From Atractiella rhizophila (taxonomy: Eukaryota), in contig MU271210.1 of NCBI GenBank assembly GCA_021432655.1, positions 77,641-141,640 of the forward strand: DNA of 64,000 bases. The letters are read 5' to 3'. The notes below the pieces were generated by a model that was given only the letters and a program-made list of their open reading frames with translations, searched no databases and was not told where the DNA came from. The position numbers were made by a program, and so were the translations under genes. This document shows, piece by piece, positions 8,336-50,239 of the stretch. Every line of letters starts with the position of its first letter. The stretch's first letter is position 1.

Positions 8336-11000
8336 ATGAAGTACAGCGTAGGGAAAGACGGAAAGATATTGTGCTACTGTGGAGAGGAAGCGAGAGAGCG
8401 TAGGGTGGTCAAGGAGAGCACCAACAAAGGGAGGTGTGTATCCCCTCTCCATTTCATCTTTCGTTCTTCTTCCAATTTCTCATTGGAATTCTCATATCCA
8501 TCTCAATGGTTCATTACTGAATTAACCTGAGCAATGCCCTTTATGCTAATTGTATTCCGACATCCGTTCAAGCTACCTCATTCAATATTTCAATGTCCAA
8601 TTCTCAGCAAAGTCAAGTTATAATGGCCAGTCAAAGCTACATGTACTCACTTATTTTTATCGGTAGGAAATTTTACAGCTGTGATAAAGACGACGGATTA
8701 AAGAAATGCACAATGTTCGGTATGTCTTGTCTTTCATTTGCTGTAAGCGCGAGGCTGACAAAGGGACGACAGTGTGGGAAGACGATCTCACTTCTCCTTT
8801 CAGGTCCAAACAATCAAACCGCGCTTCAACGAGCACAATGGCCAATTCAGCCAGTTCTCCAACAAAGCCCTTCACTGGAAGATCAATGGACACAAAGTCA
8901 CCTTCACCTACAAAACCACAGCTCGAGTTCACAACGGTCTCTCCATCCAAACAGCAACCCCGACCTCATTCCACGACCATCAGCCCCGCAGGAAAAGAAT
9001 CAAAGCCCAAACCGACGCCTGTACCTCCTCCGCCTCCATCCAGACCCCAACTACTTTCTAAACTCCAAACGCCACCAAAAGCCATCTCTACCTCTAAAGA
9101 GTCTCCCCCAAAAGCCGACTCTAACGCGAACACCACAATGGCAGTGTCTCCCTCAAGATCGAAGCTTAAGCCAGTCTCCGCTTTCACTCCACAATCAAAC
9201 CGCGCTTCGACGAGCACAATGGCCAATTCAGCCAGTTCTCCAACAAAGCCCTTCACTGGAAGATCGGTGGACACAAAGGCACCTTCGCCTACAAAACCAC
9301 AGCTCGAGTTCACAACGGTCTCTCCATCCAAACAGCAACCCCGACCTCATCCCACGACCATCACCTCCGCAGGAAAAGAATCAAAGCCCAAATCGACGCT
9401 TGTACCTCCTCCGCCTCCATCCAGACCTCAGCTACTTTCTAAACTCCAAACACCACCAAAAGCCATCTCTACCCCCAAAGAGCCCCCCCCAAAAGCCGAC
9501 CCTAACGCGAACACCACAATGGCAGTGTCTCCCTCAAGATCGAAGCTTAAGCCAGTCTCCGCTTTCACTCCATCCCTGCATGCACCAATCCCCAAACCTG
9601 ACCGGACACCTCTCAAAGGCAAAGAGGGATCCTCACACATCACCCCCAAACGATCTCCCAATACTTTCCGCGCTCAGACGCTTTTGGACCATCGCAAACG
9701 CTCGCGTACTGAGATGGAGGAGGAGGAGGATGGGGAAAAGACTGAGGATGAAGAGGCAGGAAATGGGGTCATGAGCGGAGGGAGGAAGAAGGGGAGCAGT
9801 GTTAGAACCGACGTTGGGTTTGGTGAGGGGAAGGATCTGATCCCAGTGGACGATGAAGCCCTGGATCTGATAAGTGATGAGGCGGAGGTTTTGGAGGCTT
9901 TCGAAGGTGCTATGAGATCGCAAACTCGGAAGGAAGACGAGGTCGAGGAAGGTAGGGAGTCAAAAAGGCAGAAGTTGGAGATCGAGAAATCTCCATCTTT
10001 ACGGAAGGAACCAACGCTGTTGTCTCCCCAAGAAGGTACGACTCTGCCTCCCTCTACACCATTTGTCAAAGAACCATCCCAATCAGAATCGAAGCTCCAA
10101 TCACAGGCAAAAGAGGAGTCCTCCCTTCCGTTAGTTGAAGCTGATTCCTTGCGTCGGGTGTCTACGTCTTCGAAATCACTTCACTCGCTTTCTTTCGCCT
10201 CCGCTTCCTCCATTTCTACACCCTCCTTCATCGGCGGAGGCGGATATGGGCAGAACAGACACATCGGGAGGGAGATTCTGGAGCAGTGGGAGGAAGAGGA
10301 GCGGGAGAGGGAAGAGAAGGAGAGGGCGGAAAGGGAAGAAGAGGAGAGGGAGAGGGAGGAGAGGAGACGGAAAGCTTTGGAGGAGGAAGAGGCGTGGGAG
10401 AGCGCGAATCGAGAGCTCGATTGCTCTGTGTCGGCTCTCCTTCGCGGTAGAACAGGGGAGGAGCAAGGTGTCAGAGTCGAACCGTCCAGCTCTCCACTGC
10501 CTGTTGCTTTGGAAGTCGGCTCGGGGTTGGAAAAGAAGCATCGCTCCTCCCTCCCTCCCGTCTCTGAATCATACCGACGATCGCGCTCACATACCCCTGC
10601 CCATCTACATTCTATTGCTCCCCATCACCTTGTCAACACTCCTCACCATCTTCCTGCCATCGCTTCCAGGTCCCATCCTGCCTCACCCAATAAGCTGGAT
10701 ATTACTGAAAAACTTGATACCACGATCATGGAAGCAGAAAGGATTGGAGAGGCGATGGACAGGATGAGAGAGATGCTTGTCCAGGCGAAAAGGGTTGCGC
10801 AGGAACGGGACGAGGAAATGCAGCGGCTGAAGAGAGAGAATGGGTGTGTAGTTTTCTCCCTACCTGCCTTACCTCACACCACCGATATTACTTTTCATAA
10901 CTTGTGAAAGGAGATGCTGATGTTGATTGGGCGTAGGGAATTGAAAGCTCAGATTGAACATCTGAAGCAATTGGCTGCAGATGCAGGGTTGACTCAATGA
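8336..11000 (+). CDS. GRF-type zinc-finger protein with a long low-complexity region and C-terminal coiled coil
   Basis: Exons 1-3 splice to LCYCGEEARERRVVKESTNKGRKFYSC...KCTMF.VWEDD (zf-GRF pattern with GRKF), followed by the bulk of ORF 8706..10907 and a short last exon ending TGA at 10998-11000. Confidence 0.75.
8811..9572 (+). repeat. In-frame tandem duplication, 2 x 381 bp (127 codons)
   Basis: CAATCAAACCGCGCTTC starts at 8811 and again at 9192; both copies end ...CCAGTCTCCGCTTTCACTCCA; scattered substitutions between copies. Confidence 0.95.
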
Positions 11001-19366: not shown

Positions 19367-19845
19367 AAAACGAGCTGTAAAAACGGACGTTGGAGGGCTG
19401 GGGAGAAATTGTATTCAAACAATGTGAACGTGAAATAGCGATGTCGTTTGACTGTGTCAATCTTGTATCGTGCCACTTAGATTCCCTCGATCTGCTCTGG
19501 AGCGTTTCGCTCAAGCTGCAGATGCTCCGACGCTTCTTAAGTCATTTCAAATAAATTTTCACCTCCACAATACAATGGTTACTAGGAAAGCGTTGAGAAA
19601 CCTAATAGCATTCGCGACACTCCTTTGTCACTTCAGCATCTGGAGAATGTAATTTTACCGCGTACAGCACAGGCCTCCAGCGGCGCGTTTGCCCCAGATT
19701 TCCATTCCAACAAACCAACAAGAAGAGAGTGAAAACGTATGTCCTCCTGGAAACTCAGGTAGTCATGGAGCCATAAAAGGGTTCTCGTCTTTCAAGTTGA
19801 TGGCCTATGACCCAGAGGTCAAATACATTTTCTAAGTGCGCCAAA

Positions 19846-22182
19846 ATGCTTCCGCGTCGCTCAGCTCGCCAAAAAGCAGCATTAGCAGCAGAACCTGCGC
19901 AAGAGGTACCAGCTACTCCACCTCCGAAGATGGCGCGAGGAAAGAAGCGAGCGCGGTCCCCTTCAGACGACGAAGGCGGAGCTGGAGCGGACCAGCCAGC
20001 GAAGAAAGCACAAGCTGTGGGCGATGGAACGCCCCGGAGAAAGGATGGGACTGCGTTCATCGTGCCTGTGGATCCTTCTTTCGGGAATGCACTTGGAATG
20101 CAGGTATATGTAGATGGGAAGGGAGAAGTATACGACGGTCCGTAGATTCTTTGCTATCTGCAAGAGAAGGAATGCTAATTGCTTCTGAACCAGCGGTGCT
20201 GAATCAGACTAATGCCGGGACGGGGAGCAATAATAATAAGTTTTACGTCCTCCAACTACTCCATCCGAAAGGCGACACAAGTAAAGTTACCCTCTTCAAG
20301 AAATGGGGGCGAGTGGGAGAGGACGGTGCCAACCAAGTGCGCAGTTCCTTTCTTTTGAACAGCTTACTCTTCGTTGACAAGAGCAACATAAAGATGAAGG
20401 GACCATGGGATAGTGATCAAGCAGTCAAAGAATTCCACAAGCAGTTCAGGCGTAAGACTGCTACAGACTTTGCTGATCGAAAGAGGATGGTCCCGAAGAC
20501 TGGTTTGCTTCCATTCGTAAACTATTCCTCCACATTCACGCGATAGGCAGGAAAGTATACGTGGCTTGAAAGGGAGTATGAGAATGAAGGTGCTACGAAC
20601 GCAGTCTCCCCCAGCAAGAAAAGAGTAAATCTTGAAGACATTATCATTCCTGACAGCACTCTTCCGGTCGATGTCCAGGATCTCATGCGCTTCATTTTTG
20701 ATAACTCACACGTAATTGCCACCCTCCAAGCATTAAATTACGACGCCAACAAACTTCCCCTCGGTAAATTGGGAGAATCGACCATCACCGATGGTTTTCA
20801 AGCACTAAAAGATTTGGCAGAAGTAATTGAAAGCCCAAATGGGGAGAGGAGCAAGAGCCTGGGAGGTTTTGAGAATGCAACGAGGCATCTGACGAGTAGA
20901 TTTTACACTGTTATTCCACACGCCTTTGGAAGAAGAATGCCCCGTATCATCAACAGTCGCCTCAAGGTCATTTACGTGAGCATCCTCCTTTGCTGTTTTT
21001 CGACGGTGACAATATGCAGGAAATTGACCTTCTTGACTCGCTGAGCGATATGGAAATCGCCACGAAGATCAGGCTCTCCCCTATCCCAAAAGATAGAGCT
21101 GGAAATCTCATCAATCTGGTTGATGCTCAATTCACATCTCTTGGATTAGACGAGTTGAATCTTGTCGATCCCAGAAGCAACGAATTCAAGACGATTGACA
21201 AGTATGCTCACGATACGAACGAAGGATTGGGATACCAAACTGTTAAACAGGGAATGAACTTAGGTCGTGTTTTCAGAGTTGAAAGGTAATATTTCCGCTA
21301 GACGCTCCTATTTAATGCTGATTTGTCGGATTAGGAAAGGAGAACTAGATCGTTTTGAGAGTGGTGGGTGGAATGACTTCGAGGGCGAACGAATGGTATG
21401 TTAGATATTCCTACGTGAAAATATTCCTACGTGAAATGTCTCCTGAGGCTAACATTCGTTTCAGCTCCTGTGGCATGGGTCAAAGTAAGTATCCCTCTTT
21501 CCTGTCGTTCTGCTGTACTGAACCACAAAAGAACTGTGAATTATGTGGGTATCTTGAGCAGTGGTCTTCGAATTGCTCCACCCGAAGCTCCACACTCAGG
21601 TTACGAGTTCGGAAAGGTGCAGCATTTTCTGTTTCTCTCAGCACCGGAAATCTGCCCAGCTGAAAGTCAGGGTGTTTATTTCGGCGACATGTTTGCGATC
21701 GCAGCAAACTATACTGATTTCCATCTCTCAAACAATATCGGTATCCTTCTTCTGTGCGAGGTCGTGGCAAGCCCGTTCCACGAGGCTTATGAGATGGATT
21801 TTCAGGCCGACGAAACAAGCAAGCGGAACCAAAAGATGTATGTCTGGCTTATGTTTGGGCTCTCGCTTCTAACCTGTCGTTGCAATAGTGCGACGAAAGG
21901 AATGGGAAAGTTACAGCATGAGCATTGGATGGATGCAGGTGTTGCTTTGGGAAGAGAGGACATGAAAGGTTGCATGATGCCTAGTGGAAAGGCAAAAGAC
22001 ATGTCTCCCAGCTTTCCGGGTACTTTAACAAAGAAGGAGGACTGTTGGAATGAGGTACGTTTCCCGTCTCGCGGATTCAGACCAATGAATTTGCCTTTCA
22101 GTACATCATCTACAATGTTTCGCAAGTCAAAATTCGGTATTTGCTCCAAGTCCACTTTGAGTCGCCCGATGTGATTGTGTAA
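19846..22182 (+). CDS. Poly(ADP-ribose) polymerase family protein, copy A (WGR + regulatory helical + catalytic domain)
   Basis: LNQTN...NNNKFYVLQLL...KWGRVGE (WGR); [11 protein letters not shown] and [11 protein letters not shown] (regulatory); [26 protein letters not shown] and [17 protein letters not shown] (catalytic). The splice junctions I traced keep frame. Confidence 0.95.
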
Positions 22183-22245
22183 GAAGAAGCTTGAATTGAA
22201 TTTGGTAAATGGACAAGGAATATGCGACAAATATCGTCTATTTTC

Positions 22246-23843
22246 TTAAAGTCTATTTCGTTGGCATCGCACGCATGCCAGCATTTGACAGCTGAGGCAT
22301 CGCTAAGAAAGAAAGACATAATCAGCCGAGATTCTTGGAAGAGCTGTTTTCCTCACGAGAAGATAACGATCCAGGTACTTTGAGCAGCTCTGACAGTTTC
22401 CTCCCCCGTGCCGAAGACACCACGAAACATGTGCACACTCATGGTTCGTTCGGAGTCTCGCAGCCGCTTCTCGCACCCTTGCACCATACCGAACATTAAA
22501 TGCATCGTGGATAGCATTCTGCTGCTGAAGTTGACGTTGAGGGACGACTGGACGAAAGGGATCCATGCCAAGTTCAACTCGAACCTGTTCTTCTGCCCTT
22601 TCCAGGAGGCGGGTTTCATCCCATTGCGGACATTGACAAGTCTTCCATTGCTCTCCACAGACGTAACAAAATTCATGTTTGCAAAAGCAAGTCCTGCAGC
22701 CTATTCAACAACCTGCACGTAGCAGACATAGACGTAACGCACATGTGGTAACAACCTGTGTGAAGCTCCACCATTCTTTTGCACCTATGGCAGCGTTGCC
22801 ATTTCTCGTCTGAAGCAACCTTCAGAAACTCTTCTTCGCTTTCATCTGTAGAACAGCGGCTAAAAGGATGCCACTTGGACTTGCAGTGGGCACAGACATT
22901 TTGCCCACAGATCGCACAAGCTCGTCGTTCTTTGTGCTCACTTGCACTTCCAAGGAATCGAGAACATCGAGGATCTGGACAGTACAGTCGGTTCTGCGTT
23001 TGGTGCTCCTCCAGCTTCCGTTCGTATGCTGAAAACTGATTGGCCGATAGGTGCTTTTTGAGGGACGACGTCGGCATTTCTCGATTGCAACATCGCACGG
23101 GGAGAAGGCTTTCGTCTTTCATCGCTTCGTTCACCAGCTTAAAAAAACAAGTACGGTCGTAGTGGCTTTATGACGCATTACTCACGACGATATTGCGCAG
23201 GAATCTGGAGAAACGTACTGCGCACAAGGAAACTGGACTGCTAGACTCTCCCGCACAGGATCTGTGCAGATGACACAGTCCACCGTCCTGTATAGTACGG
23301 TCAGTGAGCAGAAAAGTCTCGTCAAAAGTTGACACACGGTTCAGGAGCGAGCACAGTGCGATTTGGAGAGACAAAGGTGTGGCCAATATCGACGGGTGTT
23401 GACGATCCAGATGAAGCGGGAGAGGGTCGAAGGTGTGCGCTAGAGACACTTGTCGCAATAGACGTAGCAGAAGCACGCGAAGATCGGCTTCCTCTACTGG
23501 ATGGCCTCGATGCACGAGCATTTTCATGGAGACTCAACGCGAAGAGGCGATCTGCAGCAGCCTGACTTTCTTCCTTTTCCAGTTGCTCGAGGAGCTGGGC
23601 ATCTGTCACTGATGCTTGATGGAGGCTCAATGCAAAGTTATGATCATGGAAATCGGAAAGACGGCAGCGAAGGGACGCCTCGTAGAGCTCGAGAGCTAGT
23701 TCCTCATCGGTTGGAGGTACCCGTCTAGTTCGCTTTCTTTCGGGCTTTTCTCTAAGCTCCACTATGTCTTGAAGATGAGAAGTGATAAGCGCAAGTTCGA
23801 GTTCCGACAAGGCAGGCTTGTCATTGCCATACGGAGTATCCAT
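22246..23843 (-). CDS. RBR (RING-IBR-RING) E3 ubiquitin ligase, copy A
   Basis: RING1 CVIC...FPC.HYDRTC...DESLLPVRCC; IBR RLYCPDPRCSRFLG...CAICGQNVCAHCKSKWH; RING2 WQRCHRCKRMVELHTGCYHMTC.CKHEFCYVCG; C-terminal Cys cluster ending CVRCQRNRL. Confidence 0.92.
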
Positions 23844-24457
23844 GGGCTCTATCCCTCGATTTAATCACAGGTTGTTTTGGTAGCATTCGCTCACTTCTCT
23901 TATGGGCACAGAACACGTCTGTCGCGTCTGTGGCTCATGGTGCGCCAGCTATGCGCTGCCTTCTTTCTGTAACTATTCAATCATTCAAGGATAATCAACA
24001 CTCACAATAACTCTGAAGCGTGTCCTCAATGGTAACGTAAGCTCCAGAACAACTTCAAGTTGAAATTGAAACGCTTTCACATGCGAGAAGATTGTTGACG
24101 TGAAGGCCTCTCAGATAGAAGTTAAGCACGAGTGGTTTCCAGTCACACCAATAGTAGATCGTCAGCTTGACATCCCTCAACGTACTGATAACAAAGGGTG
24201 CAGTCACCAAATAAATGGATACCAGAATCAAGGCTAGTACATGAGTCATGGTTCCTATTTCCTTCAGCAGAGTTGCTTGCCTGACCTCCTACAACAAACA
24301 ACAACGATTCAAACCAGATTCGGGTTCATTAATTTACAGCTCCAAGGTATTTAGTTTGAATATATTCACGAAAGCTCTGCGAAATAATGCTGAAATAGTG
24401 CGGATAACAGTCCAGAACACTTTCAAACAATATCCTTCAGTCGTCCCTGTTCTTGAG

Positions 24458-26037
24458 ATGAGCTTGAGATTAGACTTCTCCAATCGGCGGGAGGACGAGC
24501 GCTTGACTGAGATTGAGTTGGAGACTATTGATTGTCACCTCAAAGATATAGAAGAAATTAGGAAGATGGGATCCACTAAGAAAAGACGTCGTCACAACTG
24601 TGGAGACGAGGACGAGGACGAGAACTTCGCACTCAATCTTTACGAGGCGACGTTACAGTCTCGTTTGACTTATCATCGTGACCACGCAATGGCTTCTAGT
24701 TTGAAGATGGCATCTACCCTTGATGAAAAGCTTTTGGATCGAATGGAGAAGGAAGAGCATCAAGCTCTGATGGACCGACAATATGCGCTGACCATTTCCA
24801 AATATCTGAATTCGGTACCTCCTGGAAAGAGCTGTTTCGACGCTACCTTCTTAAACTCAAAATCTGGACTAGGCAAGCATCTCGACAGTGGGACGGCGCG
24901 TCAATACGTAAACGCAACCTCAACCCAACAGTCTCGACCTGAACAGTGCGCGCTTTACCAATCTTTAGTAGTAGGCAGGGTTGATGGCAAAATTAGGGAT
25001 GTAAAATGCGTAGCTTGCATCGAGACTATTCGCAAAAGCCAGGCAGTTCAGTTTCCTTGCAGCCAGTAACGCCCCCGTCAGTAAATGAAAACGATCTGAT
25101 CCTGTCCTTCTAGCTACTATGATCGACAATGTTTTAACGACCTTTTCGCTGCTTGTCTCAAAGACGAAAGTCTCCTCCCTCTTCGCTGCTGCAATCAAGC
25201 TATGCTGCGAGACGAAATCCAGCAACACGTCATGCCCGAGCAATTTCGCCAGTATGAAAGCAAACTCTTGGAGCACGATACGACAAATCGACTGTACTGT
25301 GCTAATCCGAAATGTTCTACCTTCTTAGGCACCGCGAGCGGCCAGAAGGAAAGACGCGGTTGCGTAACATGTGGACAGCAGGTTTGTGCACGTTGTAAGG
25401 CTGCCTGGACCATGTTCCACTTTTGCGTCCAGGACGAGCAGGAAGCGGTTCTGTTGAAAATTGCCAATGAAGAAAAGTGGAAGCGATGTCAGAAATGTTA
25501 TCGCATGGTGGAGCTCCAGACTGGTTGCTACCACATGTTCGTTTTTCCCGGCAGTCCAGCGATGGCAGTACACTGACTTATAAAGGGGGGTAGGACTTGT
25601 CTGTGTAAGAATGAGTTTTGCTACCACTGTGGGAGTCGATGGGGAACTTGTCACTGTCCCCTTTGGAGCGAAGACAGACTTGTAGAAAGGGCAGAAGAGC
25701 AAGTGCGAGTGCAAAGAGCGAGGGATCGGGATCCAACTCCTCAACCTCAGCCACATGCCGAATTCGAACAACATCAAAGGCAGGCGTCCGTCGAGACGGC
25801 GGGATGGGATGAGGAAGTGCAGCAAGCGGCGGATAGGTTGAGGGCCAATGAAGATTGTCAGCACCAACAATGGAGGATGATCTATGGCGAAAGGAGGTGC
25901 CAGAGCTGTGAACGCCACATGCCTAATTATCTGTTGGTAAGTTTTGCGGTTTCACAAAGACGATTTTGACTGCCGCGCAGATTTGTTCAGGCTGCCAGTT
26001 TCTGGCGTGTGTTAGGTGTCAGCGAAATCGCCTTTAA
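24458..26037 (+). CDS. RBR E3 ubiquitin ligase, copy B (paralog, divergently transcribed from copy A)
   Basis: CVAC...FPCSH.YDRQC...DESLLPLRCC; RLYCANPKCSTFLG; WKRCQKCYRMVELQTGCYHMTCLCKNEFCYHCG; same C-terminal CVRCQRNRL and matching intron positions as copy A. Confidence 0.92.
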
Positions 26038-27016
26038 ATGTTTGCTATATTTCAAAGCAAAATTATTTGCAGCGAATGACATGAGAATATGAGCCTATAC
26101 TATATGCGAATCTTGCCCGCCAGATCTTCCTTTCAAGGATCATATCGTCGCATCAACCAGAAACCTGAGGATAACGGATGACTGCTACGTCGTGCCGCCT
26201 CACATCCTTGTGGTTTCAGTTGGCACATTACCTAGCTTGTCGTTGTCCTGAGCCGCTAGACGTGGGCGAGCAGGGTCCGCAATTCGGATGGAGGCGCTAT
26301 TGCCTTAGTCAAAGCCAGCAACCTTCTACTTGAGCGAGCACACTCATTCCTGATGAAGCAGAAAATGCGGGACATGTTTCAAAAAGTGACAAAGTCAGAG
26401 TCACTATTGCCTGCAAACCGGCTACAAAGTGAAAATCTTTGACCAATTTTTGATGGAGTCTTGAACGTAGTGCAAGGCAGTTATCACCTTGGCAGGATTT
26501 GGCATCCGTATCTGGTTGTGAGAAAGTAACAACTCGAAGTTTGGAGCGAAGCCAAAACCTGCATATGATTTCTAGATAGCATAGAGATTTGACTGGAGAG
26601 AAGGCAATCCTACGGAAGAAGTTTTGAGCAGGACTAAAATAATAGATTGGCTCGACCACTCAACGAATCTCTTAACTAGTTTTCTCTAGCACACCTGAAC
26701 ACAGGAGCTCGAATCCTAAGAGAAGAGTCTACACCTCTTGTGAGAAAAAGGAGCGCACCAGTCAACCCATTGACATAGGCAGTGCCAAGTGCCTCTTATC
26801 CTCCCCTTTCTGAGATCAAATCGATCAAACTCCAAAACAAATCCCTCTTGGTAGCACCATTCTCCAGGACATCAGCAGTGATTGATGTTACCTCAATGAG
26901 TCAGGAACGCGGTTCCTGTTGCATCCCAGCGCGCATCATCAACAACCATCTTCCCTCTCTAGACAAAGTATTATTCTCAGTAGTCTCCTTTCGGGACACC
27001 TCACCTCCCTCTCGTT

Positions 27017-30000
27017 ATGACACAAGCAAAAGGACATAAGCGCGGAGGCGCCAAACCCAAAAACGTGAAGCTTCGACCTGCGACAGAGGATTACAAGGGG
27101 AAAGGGAAGGAGAGGCTGCAAGAATCAACTTCATCAGAAGATGAAGTGCTACGAGGAGAGGACATGACCTTTGAAACTAGTCTGCTTAGGCATGAGAAGC
27201 CGCTTGAAGGGTGCAAGGTGGTCTTTTCTGGGCTCAAAGCAGATGGCCGTCAAGTAAGTTCTGTCTCTTGATTGCTCTCGCGTTAGGGGGGTGATGAGTA
27301 GCGCAGAATAAACTGGAACCGCTAGTTAAACAGCTAGGTGGCACGGTACAAAAGTCTCTGTTCCTTGAAACTACGCATTTAGTCTGTGAGGCAACAGGAA
27401 GCGAGAAATACAAAGTGCGACCTCCACACTGTTCTACAAATAGGAGCTGATAGAGGTGCAGTCTGCTGTACAGAATGGAATACCAACCGTCTCCCCCACC
27501 TGGATCACAGAGATTTATGATCGCTGGATTGATGGAGAAACAATAGCAGAATCAGAAGTCGTGCGTCTTTCTACCAACGAAGTAGCACAAACCGACAGTT
27601 CAAAAGATGGAGCTCGCATCCAAGAAACGGATACCTTTCTTTTTAGGTCTTTCCATCTGCACAACCGGTTTCTCAGACCCTGAATGCTCTTATCTCAAAT
27701 CTCAAATCAGCCAGCAGAGAGGTTCCTACCGCGCTTCCTTCGACGCAGGCACAACGCACCTTATAATCAAAGACAGTTCCTTCCCTGAAGGTGAATCGGG
27801 CGATTTCACGTATCGCACATCGGAGAAGGTCAAACGAGCCGTACAAATCAATGTGCGGGCTCAGTCGCAGGAGAATCAACGATTGAAGTCTCAGAAAGCG
27901 GTGACGACTGTCCAGCATTCAACGGAGAGACCATTTGATGGCGGGATATGGATACTGCGTGAAGCATGGGTCCACGAGTGTTTGAAAAAGCATGGTAGAG
28001 TGGGTGAGGAAGATTATGTTGCGGTGGACTGGACGGGAGAACTAAGTGAGTTCGAGAAGGAGCGAAGGAGAATGAGGAAGGAGAAGGAGAAGAAAAGGAA
28101 GATGGAGGACTCGTCCGAACTCCCTCCACCACCTTTGCCACCCACCTTCAACGACAATACCCAATCCACTTTCGTACCCCACTTTCAGCCTCAACCGTCA
28201 ACATCGAAACTCAATCCTTCTTCCGTTGCGGAGGACGAACCGTTACGTCCTGCTCCAGCAAAAAAAGCGAGGACGGGAAGTTTCGATATCCTGTCGCAAT
28301 TTCGCGCATTATCTCAACAACCTTCAACTGCTGCCACAAGCCCACCAGCTGAAGACGACTCCATATCCTTCCAAATTCCACAGGTCTCCGCCCGTCCGTC
28401 CATGCTAGCCACACTCGCACGTTCACGCTCTGAAAAGATTATTTTCCCTGTCACCAGCACAGCAATCCTCTCGTCCGACCGCTTGCCCGCCCCTCCTCAA
28501 ACTCAGGATGTTTCTATTATCCCGAAATTGGAAGAGGAAGAAGAATTGGGCGACGAGACCCATCTCTTTGATCCCGTATTTGATGGCATCAAACTCATGT
28601 ACAAGGACCTTAGGGAGGAACATGTACCTGTCATTCTGCGAGCGATCAGAAAGTTGGGTGCGGAATTGGTGACCTCTGAGGAGGAAGCGGACTATATTGT
28701 AGCCCCTTCTTGGTTGTAGGTCAGCAATTGTCTTCCATTCCTTTATTTATGCTAGAAAAGATCACCGCCCTACCCACCTTGGATGGACGAAGAAAATCCC
28801 AAAATCGTTTCTACCTTTTGGATCGAGAGCTGCTTCGATAACGGAAGAATACGGAGCAAGGATGAAGACGAGCGTCTTCGTCCTAAGAAAGTTGGATTTC
28901 CCTTTGAAGGTGGGTTATTTACTTTGTTTGTCCACTCAATCCTTACCTTATACTTGCTCAGCATTCAAGGATTCTGGTATGGCCACCTCCGTGGCAGGAT
29001 ATGACGAGGCGATGGCAAACTATATTTCTCGTCTATGTAACCATGCCGGTGTGTATTGCTGCAATACTGGAGAACTTGTTAAGTTTTTTATAGGGATTCC
29101 TTGTTACGATAAGCCGACTCGCAACAAATTTACGCACCTGATTGCGCCAGACGACTTTCCAAGCTCTAGAGTTGATAAGGCAAGGCAGTGGGGAAAGGAG
29201 GTGTTGAGTTACGAAGCCTTTTTGTTGTTACTTAACCTCCTCAAACTCAGGATGTTTCTATTATCCCGAAATTGGAAGAGGAAGAAGAATTGGGCGACGA
29301 GACCCATCTCTTTGATCCCGTATTTGATGGTATCAAGCTCATGTACAAGGACCTTAGGGAGGAACATGTACCTGTCATTCTGCGAGCGATCAGAAAGTTG
29401 GGTGCGGAATTGGTGAACTCTGAGGAGGAAGCGGACTATATTGTAGTCCCTTCTTGGTTGTAGGTCAGCAATTGTCTTCCATTCCTTTATTTATGCTAGA
29501 AAAGATCACCGCCCTACCCATCTTGGATGGACGAAGAAAATCCCAAAATCGTTTCTACCTTTTGGATAGAGAGCTGCTTCGATAACGGAAGAATACGGAG
29601 CAAGGATGAAGACGAGCGTCTTCGTCCTATGAAAGTTGGATTTCCCTTTGAAGGTGGGTTATTTACTTTGTTTGTCCATTCAATCCTTGCCTTATGCTTG
29701 CTCAGCATTCAAGGATTCTGGTATGGCCACCTCAGTGGCAGGATATGACGAGGCGATGGCAAACTATATTTCTCGTCTTTGTAACCATGCCGGTATGTAT
29801 GTGCTGCAATACTGGAGAACCTGTTGAGTTTTTTTTGATAGGGATTCCTTGTTACGATAAACCGACTCGCAACAAATTTACGCACCTCATTGCGCCAGAC
29901 GACTTTCCAAGCTCTAGAGTTGATAAGGCAAGGCACTGGGGCAAGGAGGTGTTGAGTTACGAAGCCTTTTTGTTGTTACTCAATGACGAGTGGACGAGGC

Positions 30001-31236
30001 TAGGTGTGTGTCTACGATGACTTTGGAGAGACGTACTCATGAGTAGACAGAATCGAAGCGCTCACTAGCTATGAAGCCGTTAACAGGATGTGTGATATTG
30101 GTTAGCAAGAAGAACTCGGTCAGTCCTCCCCCTCTAATGGCAACTAATGTTTACTCACTTTACAACAGTCCCAACGCTCAACATTGCAAGCCGTCGTTGA
30201 ATCCCTCGGCGGCTCCGTCCAGCTCACCTTCTCCGCTGAAATCACCCACTTTGTTCATTCCTCCAACAAGCCTAATGAGAACTTTGCCGATTTCAAGGCT
30301 GCGAGATCCGGACAAAAGTTCATTGTGCATCCGAAGTGGGTGGACGAATGCGGAGAACAGAAGAAACGAGTTGATGAAAGGCTTTTCCCTCATACCTGGC
30401 AACCAGGGCGATCGCTCAGCTTCACTTCCCAGGCACCAACTCCTCAAAATCGAAACCAGAGCCTGACGGCAACTTCTGCGTCGACAGGAACGGGAATTTC
30501 TAGGTCGACATCTGTCCCAACGATATACGCGAGGTCAACGAGCTCAGTTCCACCACCCCTCAAGAAAGAAAAGTCACTTCCTGTTACGATGGATCTCTCT
30601 CCCGTCGAGCCTTCAGGCCGCACATCCTCGCCTGCCGTCATTACTTTGAAAGAGACGCTTCAAATTATCTCGGAGGAACGCTCATCCAGTCCTTCTTGCC
30701 CTGTTGATGCATACGTTGTCACCAGCCCTCCCTCGCGTATGCTAGACAGACCTGTCATCAAAGAACCAGGGGGAAAGTCGACTCCGCCTGCGGTTTTGGC
30801 CGGAAAATTCGTAAATCTTCTGAAGGAATCACTGGAGCAAGGTGAGGAGGATGTAAGACTTGTAAGTATTTGACAACATTTCTGCTTGTTAACACCTGAC
30901 ACCATGTTCCAGCAACCCTTTCGTCCAGTCAAACCTCGCGGCCGTTCAAATCGAGATTCGGAGGCATCTAGAAACGACTCACCTTTTGAAGCAGAGCACG
31001 CGAGAGATGGACCTTACGATATATCTCAAACGTTCGCTGAAACTCAGGATGCGAGCTTGAGGATGGTGTTTGAAGATAAAATTGGACAAGCGGAAAAGCA
31101 AAAAATCCTCCAGAAGGTCACTAATAGCAAGAAAAGGGCTCTTCACGCCAGTGACGTCGAAGAAGGGGAGAAAAGGCAGCAGAATGGTGCTGAGCATCCG
31201 AAGCGTCGCAAATCGGGACGAGCAGTGAACTCATGA
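27017..31236 (+). CDS. Multi-BRCT scaffold protein (Dpb11/Rad4-Cut5/TopBP1-like), carrying an internal duplication
   Basis: Repeated BRCT signatures: KPLEGCKVVFSGL...LGGTVQKSL..ETTHLV...VSPTWITE; FFLGLSICTTG...TTHLII...EAWVHEC; VFDGIKL...VSTFWIESC; FTHLIA; PLTGCVILVS...LGGSVQLTFSAEITHFVH...FIVHPKWVDEC. Confidence 0.85.
28492..29983 (+). repeat. Tandem duplication of about 744 bp including introns, inside the BRCT gene
   Basis: CCTCCTCAAACTCAGGATG begins at 28492 and 29236; both copies end ...TTTTTGTTGTTACT(T/C)AA; they differ by scattered SNPs and small intronic indels. Confidence 0.95.
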
Positions 31237-31678
31237 TCGATTGTCGGGAGCACTACATTTGTGTATAGCAAATCTTCGCATTTATTATCCTTATGAAGCA
31301 TAGGAGACTGCATATTACGAAAGTTTTGTCCGTGACCGTGTAAAGCTATGTGCAACAACTAAAAAGGTTCTCCTTGACCTAGCAGTAAGTGAACACTGTT
31401 CGTTGAACTCGGATAGCTTAATCTAGCAGCAGATACTGTCATGCTCAATCCAATGTTGGTGTGACAACTTGGGAAGTGCAATCACGGCAGCCAGGTTTCC
31501 CCAACCTGAGACGCGGATAGATAACAACCTTATTATTTCGGTTTATGAAGTGAATATCCTCCCCGTCACCAGGTTCTGCTCATCCCATCCTCATATCCTC
31601 AGCGATTTGTCGAGAAAACAGTAATACATATGATCCGCCCAGTATTCTTGTCCTATTTGTTCAAACAGAGACGGGGCT

Positions 31679-33993
31679 CTACTTAAACTGGACTTGCAAC
31701 AAGTACCGAATTTTGACTTGCGATACATCATATATGATGTACTAAAATGTGACATCAGCATTTTTAAGTAATCAGAAGGTAAACATACCTCATTCCAACA
31801 ATCCTCTACCTTCACTGAGGGTCTTGGAAACGTGGAGGACAAGTCCTTCGCTTTTCCACCTGGCATGATGCAGCCCTTCAGATCATCTCTTCCTAAAGTA
31901 TCACCAGCATCAATCCAATCCTCGTGCTGCAGCTTTCCCAATGCTTTCGTTGCACTGTGGAAGAGGGCAGTTAGCGTCGTCAAAGCCAAACAAACCGAGT
32001 CCGTACATCTTTTGGTTCCCCTTGCTTGTTTTGTCAGCGTGAAAATCAAACTCATACGCCTCGTGAAAAGGTTTTGCCACAACCTCGCAGAGTAGGAGGA
32101 TGCCCATATTATTCGAGAGATAGAAATGCGTATAGTTTGCTGAGATACCAAACATGTCGCCGAAGTAGACCCCCTAACTCTCAAATGAGCAAAAGCACTG
32201 AGAGAAAGAGGTACACACCTTTCCAAATTCGTAGCCAGTGACTGGAGCCTCAGGCGGGGCGATTCGTAGACCAGTGCTCAAGATGCCTACGAAATTCGTG
32301 GTTCTTTTGCAAGTTTGCGACTCAGAACGTGCTGACAGAGGGAAGAGAAACCAACCTCGACCCATGCCACAAAAGCTGAGACAAAGATTAAACCCACGGA
32401 ACTCTTACGCATGAGGAAAATATCCAACTTACCATGCGTTCGCCTTCAAAGTCATTCCATCCACCACTCTCAAACCTAGCTAGTTCTCCTTTCCTGTTTC
32501 CGAAACGTCAGCATCAACTAAGCAATGTCTAGCGTGAAGGTTACCTTTCAACTCTGAAAACACGATGAACTTTCATTCCCTCATTAACTGTCTGATATCC
32601 CAAACCTTCGTTGGTATTGTGAGAATATTTGTCGACCGCTTTGAATTCGTCGCTCTTAGGATCGACGAGGCTCAACTCTTCCAATCCCAAAGAGGCGAAT
32701 TGAACATCGAGCGGATTGATGGGTTTTCCATCTTCATCTTTGGGCGTGGAAGAGAGCGTGATCTTCGTGGCGATTTCCATGTCACTCAACGAGTCAAGAA
32801 GGTCGATTTCCTATGGTTTGATTATTACGATGTGAAGAAGTAGAAGATAAGGTACTGACATTCTTTACCATTGGTAGACTGTCGATGATAGGCGGTCTCT
32901 TTCTTCCAAAAGCGTGTGGAATAACAGTGTAAAATCGATTCGTCAACTGCTCCGTAGCATTCTTGAAACCTCCCAACCCCTTGCTCCTTTCCCCATTTGG
33001 GGTCTCAATCACCTCTGCCAAATCCTTCAGCGCTTGAAAACCAGCCGTGATTGTCGATTCGCCCAATTTCCCGAGGGGGAGTTTGTTGGCATCGTAGTTT
33101 AGCGCCTGAAGGGTGGCATTCATGTGCGATTTATCGAAGATGAAGCGGACGAGGTCCTGGACTTCGGCTGGGAGAGTGCTGTCGGGAATGACAAGGTCTT
33201 CTTCAACTACAAGATTCCCATTTTTCTTCTTTGGAGAGACTGTCTTTGGGGCGGCGCCTTCATCTTCATACTCCCGTTCGAGCCAGGTATACTTTCCTGT
33301 CCCAAATGTGAGTGTGGCCAACCAATGATCAGTGAAAAAGCGAACCAGCCTTCGGGATCATTGTCCTTCGCTTGCTAAAGTCTGCAGCCGCTTTGCTCTT
33401 GAACTGTTTGCAGAACTCTTTGACTGCTTGATCGGCGTCCCAAGGGCCTTTCATCTTTAAGTTTTATTGTCAGAAACTAGCCTTTTGAAAAGAAGAGAGA
33501 CGAACCTGAGTAGCGCCGTTCTCTCCCACTCGCCCCCATTTTGTGAAGAGAATGACATTACTAGTATCCCCCTTCGGATGGAGGAGTTGAAGGATGTAGA
33601 ACTTGTTGTTGTTGCTCCCAGCATTGGTTTGATTCAGCATCGCTGGTTCAGCAGCCAATTAGCATTCCTTCTGTTGCAGCAATAGCAAAGAATCGACGAA
33701 CCGTCATACACTTCTCCCTTCCCATCCACATATACCTGTACTCCAAGCGCATTCCCAAAAGAAGGATCCACAGGCACGATGAACGCAGTCCCATCCTTTC
33801 TCCGGGGCATTCCATCACCCACAGCTTGTGCTTTCTTCGCTGGCTGGTCCGCTCCAGCTCCCCCTTCGTCGTCTGAAGGAGACCGGGCTCTCTTCTTTCC
33901 TCGCGCCTTCTTGGGAGGCGGAGTAGCTGGTACCTCAGCCGCAGATTCTGCTGCTACTGTTGCTTTTGGGCGAGCTGATCGACGGGGAGGCAT
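31679..33993 (-). CDS. Poly(ADP-ribose) polymerase family protein, copy B (inverted paralog of copy A)
   Basis: Same domain order and intron positions as copy [61 protein letters not shown] and [19 protein letters not shown]; stop TAG at 31679-31681. Confidence 0.95.
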
Positions 33994-34425
33994 TTTAGTG
34001 CGCTTGGAAAACGGAGAGCGACTGTTTTATGCAGTCTTCGAAATGATTCTTCTGACTTCACTTGCAAGTGGAAGTCAAAGGCCTTTTATGCTCGGAGATT
34101 GTTGTGGTTGTGAATGAATGAAGATTTCCGTTCCCAATAAATAGTTGCCAGAGTGAAACTGGAGCACATCTGAGTCCTGTTCAGGCGCAGCGAACATCAT
34201 TTTTCCATCGTGAAACGCGAAGCTCGAGGCAAGGCCCATCATTTGTGCAATTCTGAGCAGCAAGCAAAATGTGACTAAACTAAGTGCTTTACAATACTGT
34301 GTATCTAACCTGCATATTGTTCGATCGAAGCTATCAGGGTCTGAGGAAGCTGACGCTAAATCATCAAACCTGGCAGGCCAGGAGGGCGAAGGAGACGAAG
34401 AAATTTTGTGAGAAATCAAGTGCGA

Positions 34426-46373: not shown

Positions 46374-46861
46374 CGTCCTTGGGTTCCTGTCTTGTCCTGT
46401 CCAATATTTTGATAATGCAACAATGATTTCTAAGCCAATCCCGTTTGAAGGTCTCAGGAAAGATTGTGACTTGTACTGGATGTTAGTCGATGGTTGCAGG
46501 ATAGGGTGTAGAGGGAAGAACTCCCCCGTAGCCGTTGCCGACCGAATCAGACACTCCCCATCCCTCTATTTTCGCTTGCAGTCCAGCTGCTGAGTCAAAG
46601 CAGACGCGTGCCTACGCGTCTCCAGGCTCCTGTTACGTCGATGGAAGGCAGCTAAGATGACCTTGTTTCCTTGTTACGACTGAGTACTGACGGGGCAAAA
46701 CGTTTATAGAAGGTGGGATAAATACGTAATAGAAATTCGAGGCCTTCATATAAACCACCACTCTCTCTCCCACAACGACGATCACCCACTATCGAAATCT
46801 CAACATTTCAACGGGAAAATAACGAATCAGCTATCGATATTCAGCAGAATACTCAGCAATC

Positions 46862-49800
46862 ATGAAACCAGAAATTGTCGACTTGAGGACAGGCAGCATG
46901 GAGGCTGGCTCTTTGGGGAGCCAGCTGTTTGACTCTCTCTCTTCTAAAGAAGTCAGAGGGGAAGGCGATTGGAGATTCTCCAAAACTATAGATCCCAGTT
47001 TGTCTTCTCCCTCCTTTCGCCTCCAGAAGAGGTTAGAGGCTGATGGGAGGGCTTCTGCTCAAGTGGTGCTCTACGACAATGTCGGCCTCGAAATGTACCC
47101 CGAAGTAGCAAACCTCGAAGCATATTACTTGTTCAAAGACGAACTCGATATCTTGAAGAGGCATGGAGACGATATTGTGCGTCCACTAACCCCTGCTTTC
47201 TGTTCCATTTCCGATCACTGACGGGTTGCCTTTTGATTGTGGCGGGAAGGCGGCGAGAATGATGGGCCTTTTCACGGGCTCAGGCGGGCACGCCGAGAAG
47301 GAAGAGAAGTTGAAACAGAATGGCATGAACGGAACGAATGGACATGGAGCGAATGGGAAGTTGAACGAGAACGGGAAGGAGAAATGGGGAGACGACAGAG
47401 TGGGAGCGAACAATTACGGGTCTGCTTTCGAATCCTCTTCGCCTCACTTCTGCCCCGTTGCTGACTGTTATGCGCTTGCCGTGCAGTGTCAATGGATCGT
47501 TGGGCAAGATGAATGGCTGCGATTCTCATTTAGGAGGTCCCGCTGGTGGAGGCACTGTTACGCCGGTGGTAGTGGAGCTGGGTGCTGGGTCCGTCATTTT
47601 TCTTCTCTCCATTACTGCTAATGACCCTAGGACGGATGGTACAGGCCGTTGGAGAAGACCAGCCATCTTCTCGCCAGCTTGCACAAGCTCCACATTCCAG
47701 GGCTCAAGTACTATGCCGTACGTATCTCCCGTGCCTTCTCTCCTCCTACATATTTGAACGACGAATCTGCTTCTTAGCTGGACCTAGAAAAGCGTCAATT
47801 GGTGCAGACGCTTTCCGAACTCACCACCTCCTTCCCCAAAGTCGCCACAGCTCATCCGAGCGACGCTTCAAAGATCTCAGTCGGAGGGATATGTGCCGAC
47901 TATTTCCAAGGCCTAAAATGGCTTTCATCTGGCGGTCTGAACAATTCTTCAACGACCGACCCTCCCAAATGCCTATTGCACCTCGGTTCTTCCTTGGGAA
48001 ACTTCCGCCCTACCTCTGCTATTTCGTTCCTCTCCCGCATCTCGGAGCTCTTCCGTCCCGGAGTGGACAAGCTGCTCATCTGTTTGGATGGATGTCAGGA
48101 TGCGACGAAGATTGAGAGAGCGTATAATGACGAGTTCGGGAAGACGGCTGCTTGGTTTCAGAACGGATGGAGGAATGCGGGTGCCATCTTGCAGGCGAAG
48201 GGTGGAATGCCACCCGCTGAGTACGTCAATAGGTTCAACGCGCAGGAGGGAAGACACGAGGCGTATATGAGGTTAAGGGAGGGTGGAAAGGTGATTGTCA
48301 CGGTGGAAGGGGAAGAGAAGGAGCTTGAGTTCAAAGAAGGAGAACTCGTCAATGTGGAAGTCAGCTACAAGTTGACGGAGAAGCAGGCGAGAGAGATGTT
48401 CAGGAAGAGCGGATTGAGAGTCGTCCAATGTTGGAAGGGAGGGAGGGACGGTGGTGATTATTATGGCGTTTATTTGGTGGAAAGGGGAGACGAGTATGCG
48501 GAGATGGGACGCAATCTACCTAGTATGGAGGAGTGGAGGGGACTGTGGAAGCTCTGGGATGAGGTGACGCTGAACGTGAGTGGTTCCTTTCGCCCCAAGG
48601 TGGCAAGCTGTTGACCGGGGCAATCAGATCATACCGAAGGAGATGTTGCATGAAAAGCCTATTGACCTTAGGCACATTAATTTATTCTATCTTGTCAGTC
48701 CTTCCACTTATTTTGTTGGGTTATCATCCTGACAAGAGAAATAGGGACATGTACGTTGTAACCCTTTGCTTTGGATGACACGATGGTGATCCAAAACAGA
48801 TTCCAACTTTCTTGGATATTCATCTCACCAGAGCGCTGGATGGAAATCCCACCGAACCAGCCTATTTCAGGGATATCTTTGAGCGCGGAATCGATCCGGA
48901 CATGGAAGACCCTACGAAAGTCTGTTTTCCATTTGGAAAGCTTCTCTGCTGTGACTTAGCATTCAACGCCTCTATGCAGATTCACCGTCACTCCAAGGTC
49001 CCGAAGGTGAAAGAAGACTGGCCAACTTTGGAGGAGATCCTCGCCTTCCGCGATGCAGTGAGGAAAAGGGTGGAGACGATTTACGACGAGAAGAAATATG
49101 AGAGAGAAGGAGGAGGTGTCGATAGAGCATTTGGGAGGAGCCTGTGGTTAGGATACGAACATGAAGGTGCGTTCCGTACATTCACTGGCTGCTTTGTTCT
49201 TTGACTGAAGTCGAATGTAGCCATGCACCTGGAGACGATTCTATACATGATCGTGCAAATGGCACCAGAAAAAATTAACCCTCCAAGTTCAGCGAGTATC
49301 CCAGACTTCCGCTCCCTCTCAAATCATTGGAATGCTCTCTATCGTTCTCAAGATTTAGAAACCACTGAGACGTTTCAGCCGTCCTCGTTAAACTTCGGAA
49401 TTGACGATGTCGACACTCGTGACAATGCAGGCCTGTCTCCTTCCCATGTCTATGGCTGGGATAACGAATCCCCGACAAGGATCGTGGAGGTGAAGAAACC
49501 TTTCAAGATCAGCTTGTTGATGATTACGAATGGCGATTACTACGACTTTTGGAAGCAGGAACCAGGCAGGAAGACCCCAGAGAGCTGGAAGGTGGATGAA
49601 ACGGGCAACGTGAGCGTCAAAACGGCTTATGGGCTCGTTCCGCTTGCATATGCGAAGCATTGGCCCGTCACTGGGTGCGGCAACATGCTAACCGACTACG
49701 CGAGAGTGAGTTGGCACCTAAGTTGCGTTGATTTTATCACTAACATGTTGCAATAGTCGAAGGGGGGCAGACTTCCCACTGAATTCGAGTTGCAGATGCT

Positions 49801-50239
49801 CTACGACAAGTATCCGATTAATCCCTTCACCTCGAATGTGGACTTCCAGACCTGGCATCCCGTACCGTAGGCAGACTTTGACATCTAACGCTTGCCTCGG
49901 CTGAGCTGCACCTTTTAGTACCACCGTCAATGCTCCTACTTCTGGCGGAGTATGGGAATGGACTTGCACTTCCTTCGACTTGTACGACGGTTTTGTGAAG
50001 TCTCGACTTTACCCCGAGTACTCTGAAGACTTCTTCGTGAAAGAAGGGCAAGTCGATCATTGGGTTGTCAAAGGTGGAAGTTGGGGAACTGTGAAGAGAA
50101 TCGCTACCAGAAGGAGCTTTAGGAATTGGTATCAGATGAAATATGGGATGTGTTTTGGTAAGTATAATTCATCTCTCTGAGCATGATACTGAAGTCGACG
50201 CACGTAGCTGGCGGACGCATTGTGTGGGACTTGGAATGA
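46862..50239 (+). CDS. EGT1: Ergothioneine biosynthesis protein Egt1 (histidine methyltransferase fused to sulfoxide synthase)
   Basis: LYDNVGLEMY...YYLFKDELDIL, VVELGAG, LGSSLGNF, AYND and EVSYK (EgtD-like); KPIDLRHINLFYLGHIP, FERGIDP, HEAMHLETILYM, GWDNESP, GGVWEWT, LYPEYSEDFF and RRSFRNWYQ (DinB-like + FGE-sulfatase). Confidence 0.93.

Follow-up and report, generated by a model that had tools for sequence, protein, structure and literature searches.

Is a mirror-arranged block of genes for poly(ADP-ribose) polymerases (PARPs), RING-between-RING (RBR) ubiquitin ligases and a multi-BRCT protein a signalling module, or is it the outcome of a local duplication of ordinary genes? The question is raised by a locus of Atractiella rhizophila, a root-associated fungus of the Atractiellomycetes (Basidiomycota, Pucciniomycotina). 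The locus covers positions 19846–33993 of a stretch of 64,000 nucleotides of contig MU271210.1 (assembly GCA_021432655.1, positions 77,641 to 141,640 of the forward strand), which we call the window and to which all coordinates refer. It encodes, in this order, PARP_A (+), RBR1 (−), RBR2 (+), the multi-BRCT gene (+) and PARP_B (−). A previous sequence-only reading interpreted these genes as a writer (PARP), a ligase (RBR) and a possible reader (BRCT) kept together as a module. We conclude that the block probably arose by local duplication of ordinary genes, in mirror image and within this lineage, and is not a demonstrated signalling module. Its parts appear to be ordinary members of known families, and we regard a functional coupling of the PARP and RBR genes as unlikely.

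Gene content and arrangement of the block

We built the gene models with our own protein-guided spliced aligner, which from PARP_B gives the database protein P0003 letter for letter. PARP_A (19846–22182, + strand) has 11 exons and encodes 604 aa, as supported by the spliced model, by Pfam matches on the exons and by RNA splice joints. PARP_B (31679–33993, − strand) has 11 exons and 600 aa, and its model translates exactly to P0003. RBR1 (22246–23843, − strand; 5 exons, 463 aa) is supported by its spliced model, by the database protein P0001 and by RNA joints, and RBR2 (24458–26037, + strand; 4 exons, 476 aa) by its spliced model, by the database protein P0124 and by RNA contigs. The multi-BRCT gene, which is TopBP1/Dpb11/Rad4-like, lies at 27017–31236 (+ strand) and has a database model of 1009 aa (P0123). 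None of the five models contains an internal stop. Pfam profiles also matched the raw pieces of open reading frames (ORFs): PARP_reg at 20547–21044 (E 1.9e-29) and 32794–33357 (E 1.1e-34), the PARP catalytic domain at 21419–22174 (E 3.7e-14), IBR at 22673–23167 (E 5.8e-10) and 25100–25576 (E 1.1e-8), and BRCT at 27586–28719 (E 7.6e-9) and 30148–30873 (E 3.2e-8). The sequence-only reading had therefore placed the five genes correctly, in order and on their strands. It was also right that the four PARP and RBR genes are intact, since they lack internal stops, both PARPs keep the H-Y-E triad and both RBRs the motif GCYHMTC.

The two PARP genes are linked by 11 pairs of inverted repeats (47–330 nt, 74–90% complementary). 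PARP_A and RBR1 are arranged tail-to-tail with 63 bp between their stop codons, as are PARP_B and the BRCT gene, with 442 bp. Only RBR1 and RBR2 are head-to-head. The divergent intergenic region between their start codons (23844–24457) measures 614 bp, in agreement with the earlier estimate of about 610 bp, and is presumed to be a shared promoter region.

History of the two paralogous pairs

The PARP tree (24 rows) places PARP_A and PARP_B as sisters (Shimodaira–Hasegawa-like approximate likelihood ratio test, SH-aLRT, 100; stem 0.29). The RBR tree (46 rows) does the same for RBR1 and RBR2 (SH-aLRT 100, stem 0.55); it includes P0002 and 43 of the 149 listed relatives, those having one match across the whole core, and leaves the rest out. 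Since each pair forms sisters with this support, both arose within the Atractiella lineage. All 10 introns of the PARPs stand at common positions; in the RBRs three do, and a further intron of RBR1 lies 5′, upstream of RING1. These results bear out the view of the PARPs as inverted paralogs with shared introns, and of the RBRs as divergent, head-to-head paralogs.

Judged by their neutral sites, the two pairs are not of one age. The RBRs had been noticed to look more diverged than the PARPs, and this is so both in amino-acid identity (47% against 79.7%) and at four-fold degenerate sites, where 50 of 75 differ between the RBRs (Jukes–Cantor distance 1.65, near saturation) and 85 of 211 between the PARPs (Jukes–Cantor distance 0.58). 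The PARP introns can be aligned and are 64% identical, whereas those of the RBRs cannot be aligned and are 52% identical, which is the level of shuffled sequences (about 49%). For the PARPs we estimated 0.113 nonsynonymous (dN) and 0.72 synonymous (dS) substitutions per site, and the ratio of 0.16 indicates that purifying selection acts on them. In the RBR pair dN is 0.51 and the synonymous sites are saturated (proportion of differences 0.87). Very different duplication ages had been named in advance as evidence against the module, and at neutral sites this is what we found.

The divergence of the PARPs is not uniform along the gene. Of the four-fold sites, 15 of 65 differ within the first 120 codons and 70 of 146 beyond them (Fisher p 0.0008). 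The copies of intron 1 have 88% identity, and the 600-bp stretches upstream of the two PARP start codons are at shuffle level (49–53%). This combination of a homology bounded by the gene and a younger 5′ tract fits gene conversion between the inverted PARP copies, which we consider probable. Given the differing ages, a single duplication of a PARP+RBR unit requires that the PARPs were later subject to such conversion. Two histories would account for the data about equally well. There may have been an old fold-back duplication of RBR-(BRCT)-PARP, followed by loss of the second BRCT copy and repeated PARP gene conversion. Or an older duplication of the RBR gene may have been followed by a younger, inverted duplication of the PARP gene. 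The proposal of an inverted duplication of a PARP+RBR unit, with the BRCT gene inside one arm, is therefore consistent with the layout; as a single event it is at odds with the ages, unless the PARPs were converted.

Relative-rate tests indicate that one copy in each pair evolves fast and the other slowly. Unique changes number 57 in PARP_A and 14 in PARP_B (p 3e-7), in line with their end branches in the PARP tree (0.23 for PARP_A, 0.037 for PARP_B). RBR2 has 56 unique changes and RBR1 21 (p 7e-5). The fast copies are in different arms of the block, PARP_A being next to RBR1 and RBR2 lying in the arm of PARP_B. The faster copies, PARP_A and RBR2, might be undergoing sub- or neo-functionalisation.

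The PARPs

P0003, the product of PARP_B, is listed by NCBI as an A. rhizophila 'PARP-domain-containing protein' of 600 aa and is 100% identical to our exon pieces. It matches the Pfam profiles WGR (PF05406, E 5.4e-20), PARP_reg (PF02877, E 1.1e-44) and PARP (PF00644, E 1.4e-43), and its gene has 10 introns of 45–59 nt each. PARP_A has a basic N-terminal tail followed by the WGR, regulatory and catalytic domains, with the WGR motif region kept in the alignment. The H-Y-E triad is found in both proteins in the motifs LLWHGS, GVYFGD and WNEYIIY, aligned with 13 other fungal PARPs, and we take its residues to be the equivalents of H862, Y896 and E988 of human PARP1. We considered a loss of the catalytic histidine and rejected it, as the correct frame reads LLWHGS. 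By these features PARP_A and PARP_B are best classed as clade-1 PARPs, of the DNA-break-sensor type, and would carry out the family's usual role, PARylation (the attachment of poly(ADP-ribose), PAR) at DNA breaks. No N-terminal BRCT domain was matched by Pfam in P0003, and the precomputed Pfam annotations show that the named basidiomycete relatives among the matches listed likewise lack one. PARP_A had no matching database protein among the 120 matches listed, though the gene is spliced and transcribed.

The two copies differ at a conserved position. Exon 9 of PARP_A (21671–21837) encodes AIAANY, against GISANY in PARP_B, so that a conserved serine is replaced by alanine. All 13 other PARPs of the alignment whose motif is free of gaps have this serine of the S.NY motif ([KI]S followed by xNY or xGY). 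In PARP1 it contacts the amide of nicotinamide. The change might weaken the binding of NAD+ by PARP_A.

In the PARP tree, the Atractiella pair belongs to a clade (SH-aLRT 100) that also contains a 'PARP-1-like protein' of Schizophyllum commune and an unnamed protein and that excludes 11 other Agaricomycete PARPs. Near the active site, the members of this clade have the motifs GYEFGKG, GIS.NY and CWNEY, against GYMFGKG, SKS.NY and LQYNEY elsewhere. The clade could be an old basidiomycete lineage of PARP paralogs, or could result from gene transfer.

The RBR ligases

RBR1 consists of an N-terminal region of helical motifs, RING1, IBR, RING2 with the motif GCYHMTC, and C-terminal helices with a Cys-rich finger, and RBR2 has the same order. 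The A. rhizophila proteins of NCBI include P0001, a 'hypothetical protein' entered as partial (291 aa), which has 100% identity to RBR1 over the core and matches the Pfam profiles RING and, in two stretches, IBR. P0124 (372 aa) is 100% identical to residues 105–476 of RBR2. Both database models are truncated at the 5′ end: that of RBR1 lacks the N-terminal 172 residues and that of RBR2 the N-terminal 104.

The motif GCYHMTC of the two proteins aligns with GCNHMQC of ARIH2. Among 44 aligned members of the family, the columns G236, C237 and H239 of the catalytic-Cys motif are invariant, as are the Cys/His columns. ARIH2 is the closest solved relative by sequence (E 3.7e-7), with a match that stops at query residue 192, inside the RBR core. 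An AlphaFold model of RBR2 residues 105–476 (mean predicted local distance difference test score 81.3) matches the folds of ARIH2, HHARI, RNF216, HOIL-1, HOIP and Parkin, each with a probability of 1.00. RBR1 and RBR2 are therefore predicted to take ubiquitin from an E2 enzyme onto the RING2 cysteine in GCYHMTC, and would then pass it to substrates.

The family is large. The count of cluster representatives was 6641 at E ≤ 1e-3 and 501 at E ≤ 1e-30, and most have 430–470 aa and the same layout. We infer from fungal-type fusions (2EXR) and from the entries of a protein atlas that the family is fungal. The N-terminal exon of RBR2 reached a best score of 0.82 in this atlas, below the meaningful level, with nearest clusters named fungal IBR/RING proteins. 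The N-terminal helical motifs, and the two C-terminal helices with a Cys-rich finger ending in RCxRNRL, are common to the whole family. Pfam matched neither an Ariadne, UBA or Ubl domain nor any other accessory domain in the RBRs; at the C-terminus, the two helices and the finger stand in place of an Ariadne domain. Nor did it match WWE, macro or PBZ domains in P0001, P0124, P0002, P0127 or 23 long relatives. RBR1 and RBR2 thus seem to hold nothing specific to ADP-ribose.

The multi-BRCT gene

P0123, also an A. rhizophila protein of NCBI ('hypothetical protein', partial, 1009 aa), is 100% identical to exon pieces of the gene. It matches the Pfam profiles BRCT in three stretches (2.6e-39) and PTCB-BRCT in four (7.5e-35). 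A homology search with this protein returned only P0123 itself. Its best sequence matches in the PDB are BRCT6 of TopBP1 (5.8e-15), ECT2 (3.4e-13) and BRCT1-2 of Schizosaccharomyces pombe Rad4 (7.5e-10). Residues 60–206 correspond to the Rad4 pair (4bmc, E 7.5e-10) and to the N-terminal BRCTs of TopBP1 (about 1e-8), and residues 650–752 to TopBP1 BRCT6 (3jve, E 5.8e-15). Though the BRCTs of ECT2 score similarly, Pfam found no RhoGEF domain in the protein. We also considered an identity with Rtt107, Brc1 or PTIP: the profile RTT107_BRCT_5 matched weakly (26.8 bits, for a cut-off of 27), and the PDB matches favour a TopBP1/Rad4-like protein. The gene product thus looks like a replication and checkpoint scaffold of the TopBP1/Dpb11/Rad4 type, and would have the corresponding scaffolding role.

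The gene contains a tandem duplication at 28492–29983 (+ strand), with copies at 28492–29235 and 29236–29983. The copies are 96–98% identical (families D1 and D2, spacing 744 and 748) and include four exon segments, among them a BRCT pair. Reading through the junction between them changes the frame (ORF 28703–29416), so that the copies are out of frame unless the junction is spliced over. The model agrees with P0123 only if a splice leads from one copy to the other, so that one copy is skipped. The duplication may be real and recent, or may represent two alleles assembled in tandem.

Transcription

The contigs of one public sequencing run (X3) cover all 30 bins of 19500–34300. They are spliced at exactly the predicted GT..AG introns and are therefore derived from RNA. 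All five genes are transcribed. Spliced RNA contigs were seen for four of the five: PARP_A, RBR1, the BRCT gene and PARP_B. Among the joints listed in X3 are 20137/20194, 20336/20394, 20502/20551 and 20975/21020 of PARP_A, 30003/30051 and 30861/30913 of the BRCT gene, and seven joints of PARP_B. Two further low-share runs (X1 and X2) both contain the PARP_A joint 21837/21889. The RBR1 joint 23165/23219 was found in all three runs, and 23287/23337 in X2. RBR2 lies under X3 contigs of depth 7–13, with no RBR2 joint among the joints listed. The depths of the X3 contigs are not usable for ranking the genes.

Two X3 contigs have unusual joints. One connects exon 1 of PARP_A (20137) to exon 2 of PARP_B (33640), which lie on different strands; the simplest reading is a chimera of the assembly, caused by the 90% identical 5′ ends of the PARPs. 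Another has a depth of 41.8, equal to that of the RBR1 contig; it links 24134 with 26758 through three additional letters and skips the whole of RBR2. Both sides of this joint hold the 7-letter word CCAGTCA, and other X3 contigs cover RBR2. The contig could reflect an allele without RBR2, or could be chimeric.

Tests of a PARP–RBR–BRCT association

With 15 aligned basidiomycete PARPs as the query, a scan of metagenome contigs yielded 80 PARP loci, of which 27 were at least 8 kb and 10 at least 15 kb long. None of the 80 had an RBR in its flanks (tblastn with RBR1, RBR2 and P0002). BRCT matches were found in seven, directly upstream of the PARP match, and we read these as probable cases of the ascomycete-type BRCT-PARP fusion. 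Fusions of the RBR to PARP, WWE, macro or BRCT domains were absent from the 23 long proteins of the RBR family. The four upstream regions (those of the two PARPs and of the BRCT gene, and the region between the RBRs) have no 7–9-letter words in common (0, against means of 0.005–0.56 in shuffled sequences). All four contain single ACGCG-type sites, which are uninformative. A prediction of a complex between PARP_B (P0003) and residues 105–476 of RBR2 (P0124) made no use of alignments and scored 0.00 against a mark of 0.34, a result that carries no weight either way.

The earlier reading knew of no described fungal cluster of this type, and our full-text literature searches returned no description of a PARP–RBR cluster. 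A survey that covered the PARPs of 534 fungal genomes (bioRxiv 10.64898/2026.07.25.740670) uses neither RBR nor IBR as a word in its main text, as available to us. The available text of this survey names a PARP-Ubc fusion as the fungal link between PARPs and ubiquitin, and a review from 2026 agrees with it in its accessible part (PMC13720257). The proposed module of writer, ligase and reader thus drew no support from any of the tests (80 loci without RBR, 23 proteins without fusions, a tail-to-tail arrangement, no shared words), and stands as unproven, not refuted.

Alternative explanations

What the module would entail is specific: PARP would write PAR at damaged DNA or upon contact with non-self, the RBR would be recruited or activated by PAR or by the PARP, and the BRCT protein would read the mark or act as a scaffold, so that linkage was selected and the unit duplicated as a whole. 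The mirror layout of both pairs, the intact and transcribed state of all genes and the purifying selection on the PARPs are what such a unit would show. An interaction of TopBP1 BRCT6 with PARP-1 has been published (PMC3195086, as far as its available text goes), and the PARP-Ubc fusion, as the sources at hand describe it, couples ADP-ribosylation with ubiquitin in fungi. Yet the neutral-site ages of the two pairs differ, the fast copies are in different arms (PARP_A with RBR1, RBR2 with PARP_B), and the convergent PARP and RBR genes, with 63 bp between stop codons, share no promoter. No 7–9-letter word is common to the four upstream regions. The RBRs are without WWE, macro, PBZ or BRCT domains, they have their N-terminal motifs in common with the family at large, and neither the 80 PARP loci nor the 23 long relatives brought an RBR neighbour or a fusion with an ADP-ribose domain. 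On balance, we give this module only a small chance of being right. A narrower version, which we hold to be quite improbable, would make the convergent PARP–RBR pair a functional unit of the subclade of BRCT-less basidiomycete PARPs (Atractiella, Schizophyllum and relatives). There the RBR would ubiquitylate PARylated or PARP-bound targets, the TopBP1-like protein would provide a BRCT surface in trans, and the unit, duplicated as a whole, would have diverged into a conserved and a specialised pair.

Several points weigh against our preferred explanation, the local duplication of ordinary genes. Mirror symmetry, with intact and transcribed copies of both families, is also expected of a co-selected unit. 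The fifth BRCT of the BRCT protein resembles TopBP1 BRCT6, the domain of the published interaction, and a fungal link between PARP and ubiquitin is already known in the form of PARP-Ubc, according to the available texts. The 80 metagenomic loci are 32–46% identical to the Atractiella PARPs and of unknown taxa, so that they say little on close relatives, and the A. rhizophila locus is the only basidiomycete genome context inspected. An assembly artefact, in which the mirror arrangement or one of the copies stems from mis-joined haplotypes or repeats, is a very remote prospect by comparison with a local duplication. The 96–98% identical tandem duplication in the BRCT gene does look like two alleles in tandem, the window and the X3 contigs disagree at numerous positions (at least 40), and one of them joins 24134 to 26758 without RBR2. 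However, the copies are far beyond allelic divergence (about 80% identity for the PARPs, 47% for the RBRs). PARP_A, PARP_B and RBR1 each have their own spliced RNA contigs, and RBR2 is also covered by contigs. Furthermore, P0001, P0124, P0003 and P0123 are separate database proteins, three of which (P0001, P0003 and P0123) are listed with one contig of 154,238 bp.

Genomic surroundings

The surroundings of the block are ordinary. It is flanked on one side by genes for ATG9, a protein kinase, TCF25 and a pectate lyase, and on the other by genes for a DEAD-box helicase, U1-70K, UNC-50, a WW protein, an Egt1-like protein, a short-chain dehydrogenase/reductase (SDR) and CTU2. Among the 181 flanking ORFs scanned there were no matches to transposon, macro, PARG or E2 domains, and we rejected a mating-type or transposon context, as no such domains occurred among them. 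The gene at 46823–50177 encodes a histidine-specific methyltransferase domain followed by an FGE-sulfatase domain, a layout that we take to be that of the ergothioneine synthase Egt1. A 739-aa open frame at 8688–10904 (+ strand) has no Pfam match at E ≤ 0.01.

Significance of the locus

As the evidence stands, the value of the locus is mainly that of a clean local inverted duplication, in which the copies diverged unequally and gene conversion probably took place, from a Pucciniomycotina lineage that has received little study. It also calls for corrections of the annotation: PARP_A is transcribed but had no counterpart among the 120 matches listed, the RBR models are truncated at the 5′ end and the BRCT model skips a tandem copy. 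If the PARP and RBR genes did act together, fungi would have their first case of separate genes linking ADP-ribosylation to ubiquitin, beside the PARP-Ubc fusion, and a large, uncharacterised family of fungal RBRs would gain a testable function.

Comparison with known systems

PARP9 and DTX3L form a head-to-head pair of PARP and E3 genes and exemplify ADP-ribose-coupled ubiquitylation, as does RNF146 (Iduna) with tankyrase. The Atractiella block shares with these systems a PARP gene adjoining the gene of an E3 ligase. It differs from PARP9/DTX3L in that PARP_A and RBR1 are tail-to-tail, without a shared promoter, and in that the E3 is an RBR and not a Deltex protein. It differs from RNF146 in having an RBR in place of a RING-WWE ligase, with no WWE or macro domain found. 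Compared with ARIH2, HHARI, RNF216, HOIL-1, HOIP and Parkin, the Atractiella RBRs have the same RING1-IBR-RING2 order and catalytic-Cys motif. They differ in having, instead of known accessory domains, family-specific helical motifs at the N-terminus and two helices with a Cys-rich finger at the C-terminus.

The BRCT protein resembles TopBP1, S. pombe Rad4 (Cut5) and Saccharomyces cerevisiae Dpb11 in its N-terminal BRCT pair, which is like BRCT1-2 of Rad4 and TopBP1, and in a later single BRCT, which is like TopBP1 BRCT6; these are likenesses of sequence only. It differs from all three in that the Atractiella gene holds an internal tandem duplication.

The PARPs have the WGR, helical regulatory and ADP-ribosyltransferase domains, with H-Y-E, of the fungal fPARP1 proteins (PARP1 of Aspergillus fumigatus, PrpA of Aspergillus nidulans and NPO of Neurospora crassa) and of human PARP2 and PARP3. 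They have a short basic N-terminal tail in place of zinc fingers, as in PARP2 and PARP3. Most fPARP1s carry an N-terminal BRCT domain, according to the available part of a review (PMC13720257), and the Atractiella PARPs differ from these, as from ascomycete PARPs, in lacking it. The PARP-Ubc of other fungi, as far as the sources at hand describe it, is a single protein in which a PARP6-like catalytic domain of clade 6 is fused to a UBCc E2 domain, whereas the Atractiella block consists of separate genes, for a clade-1 PARP and for an E3.

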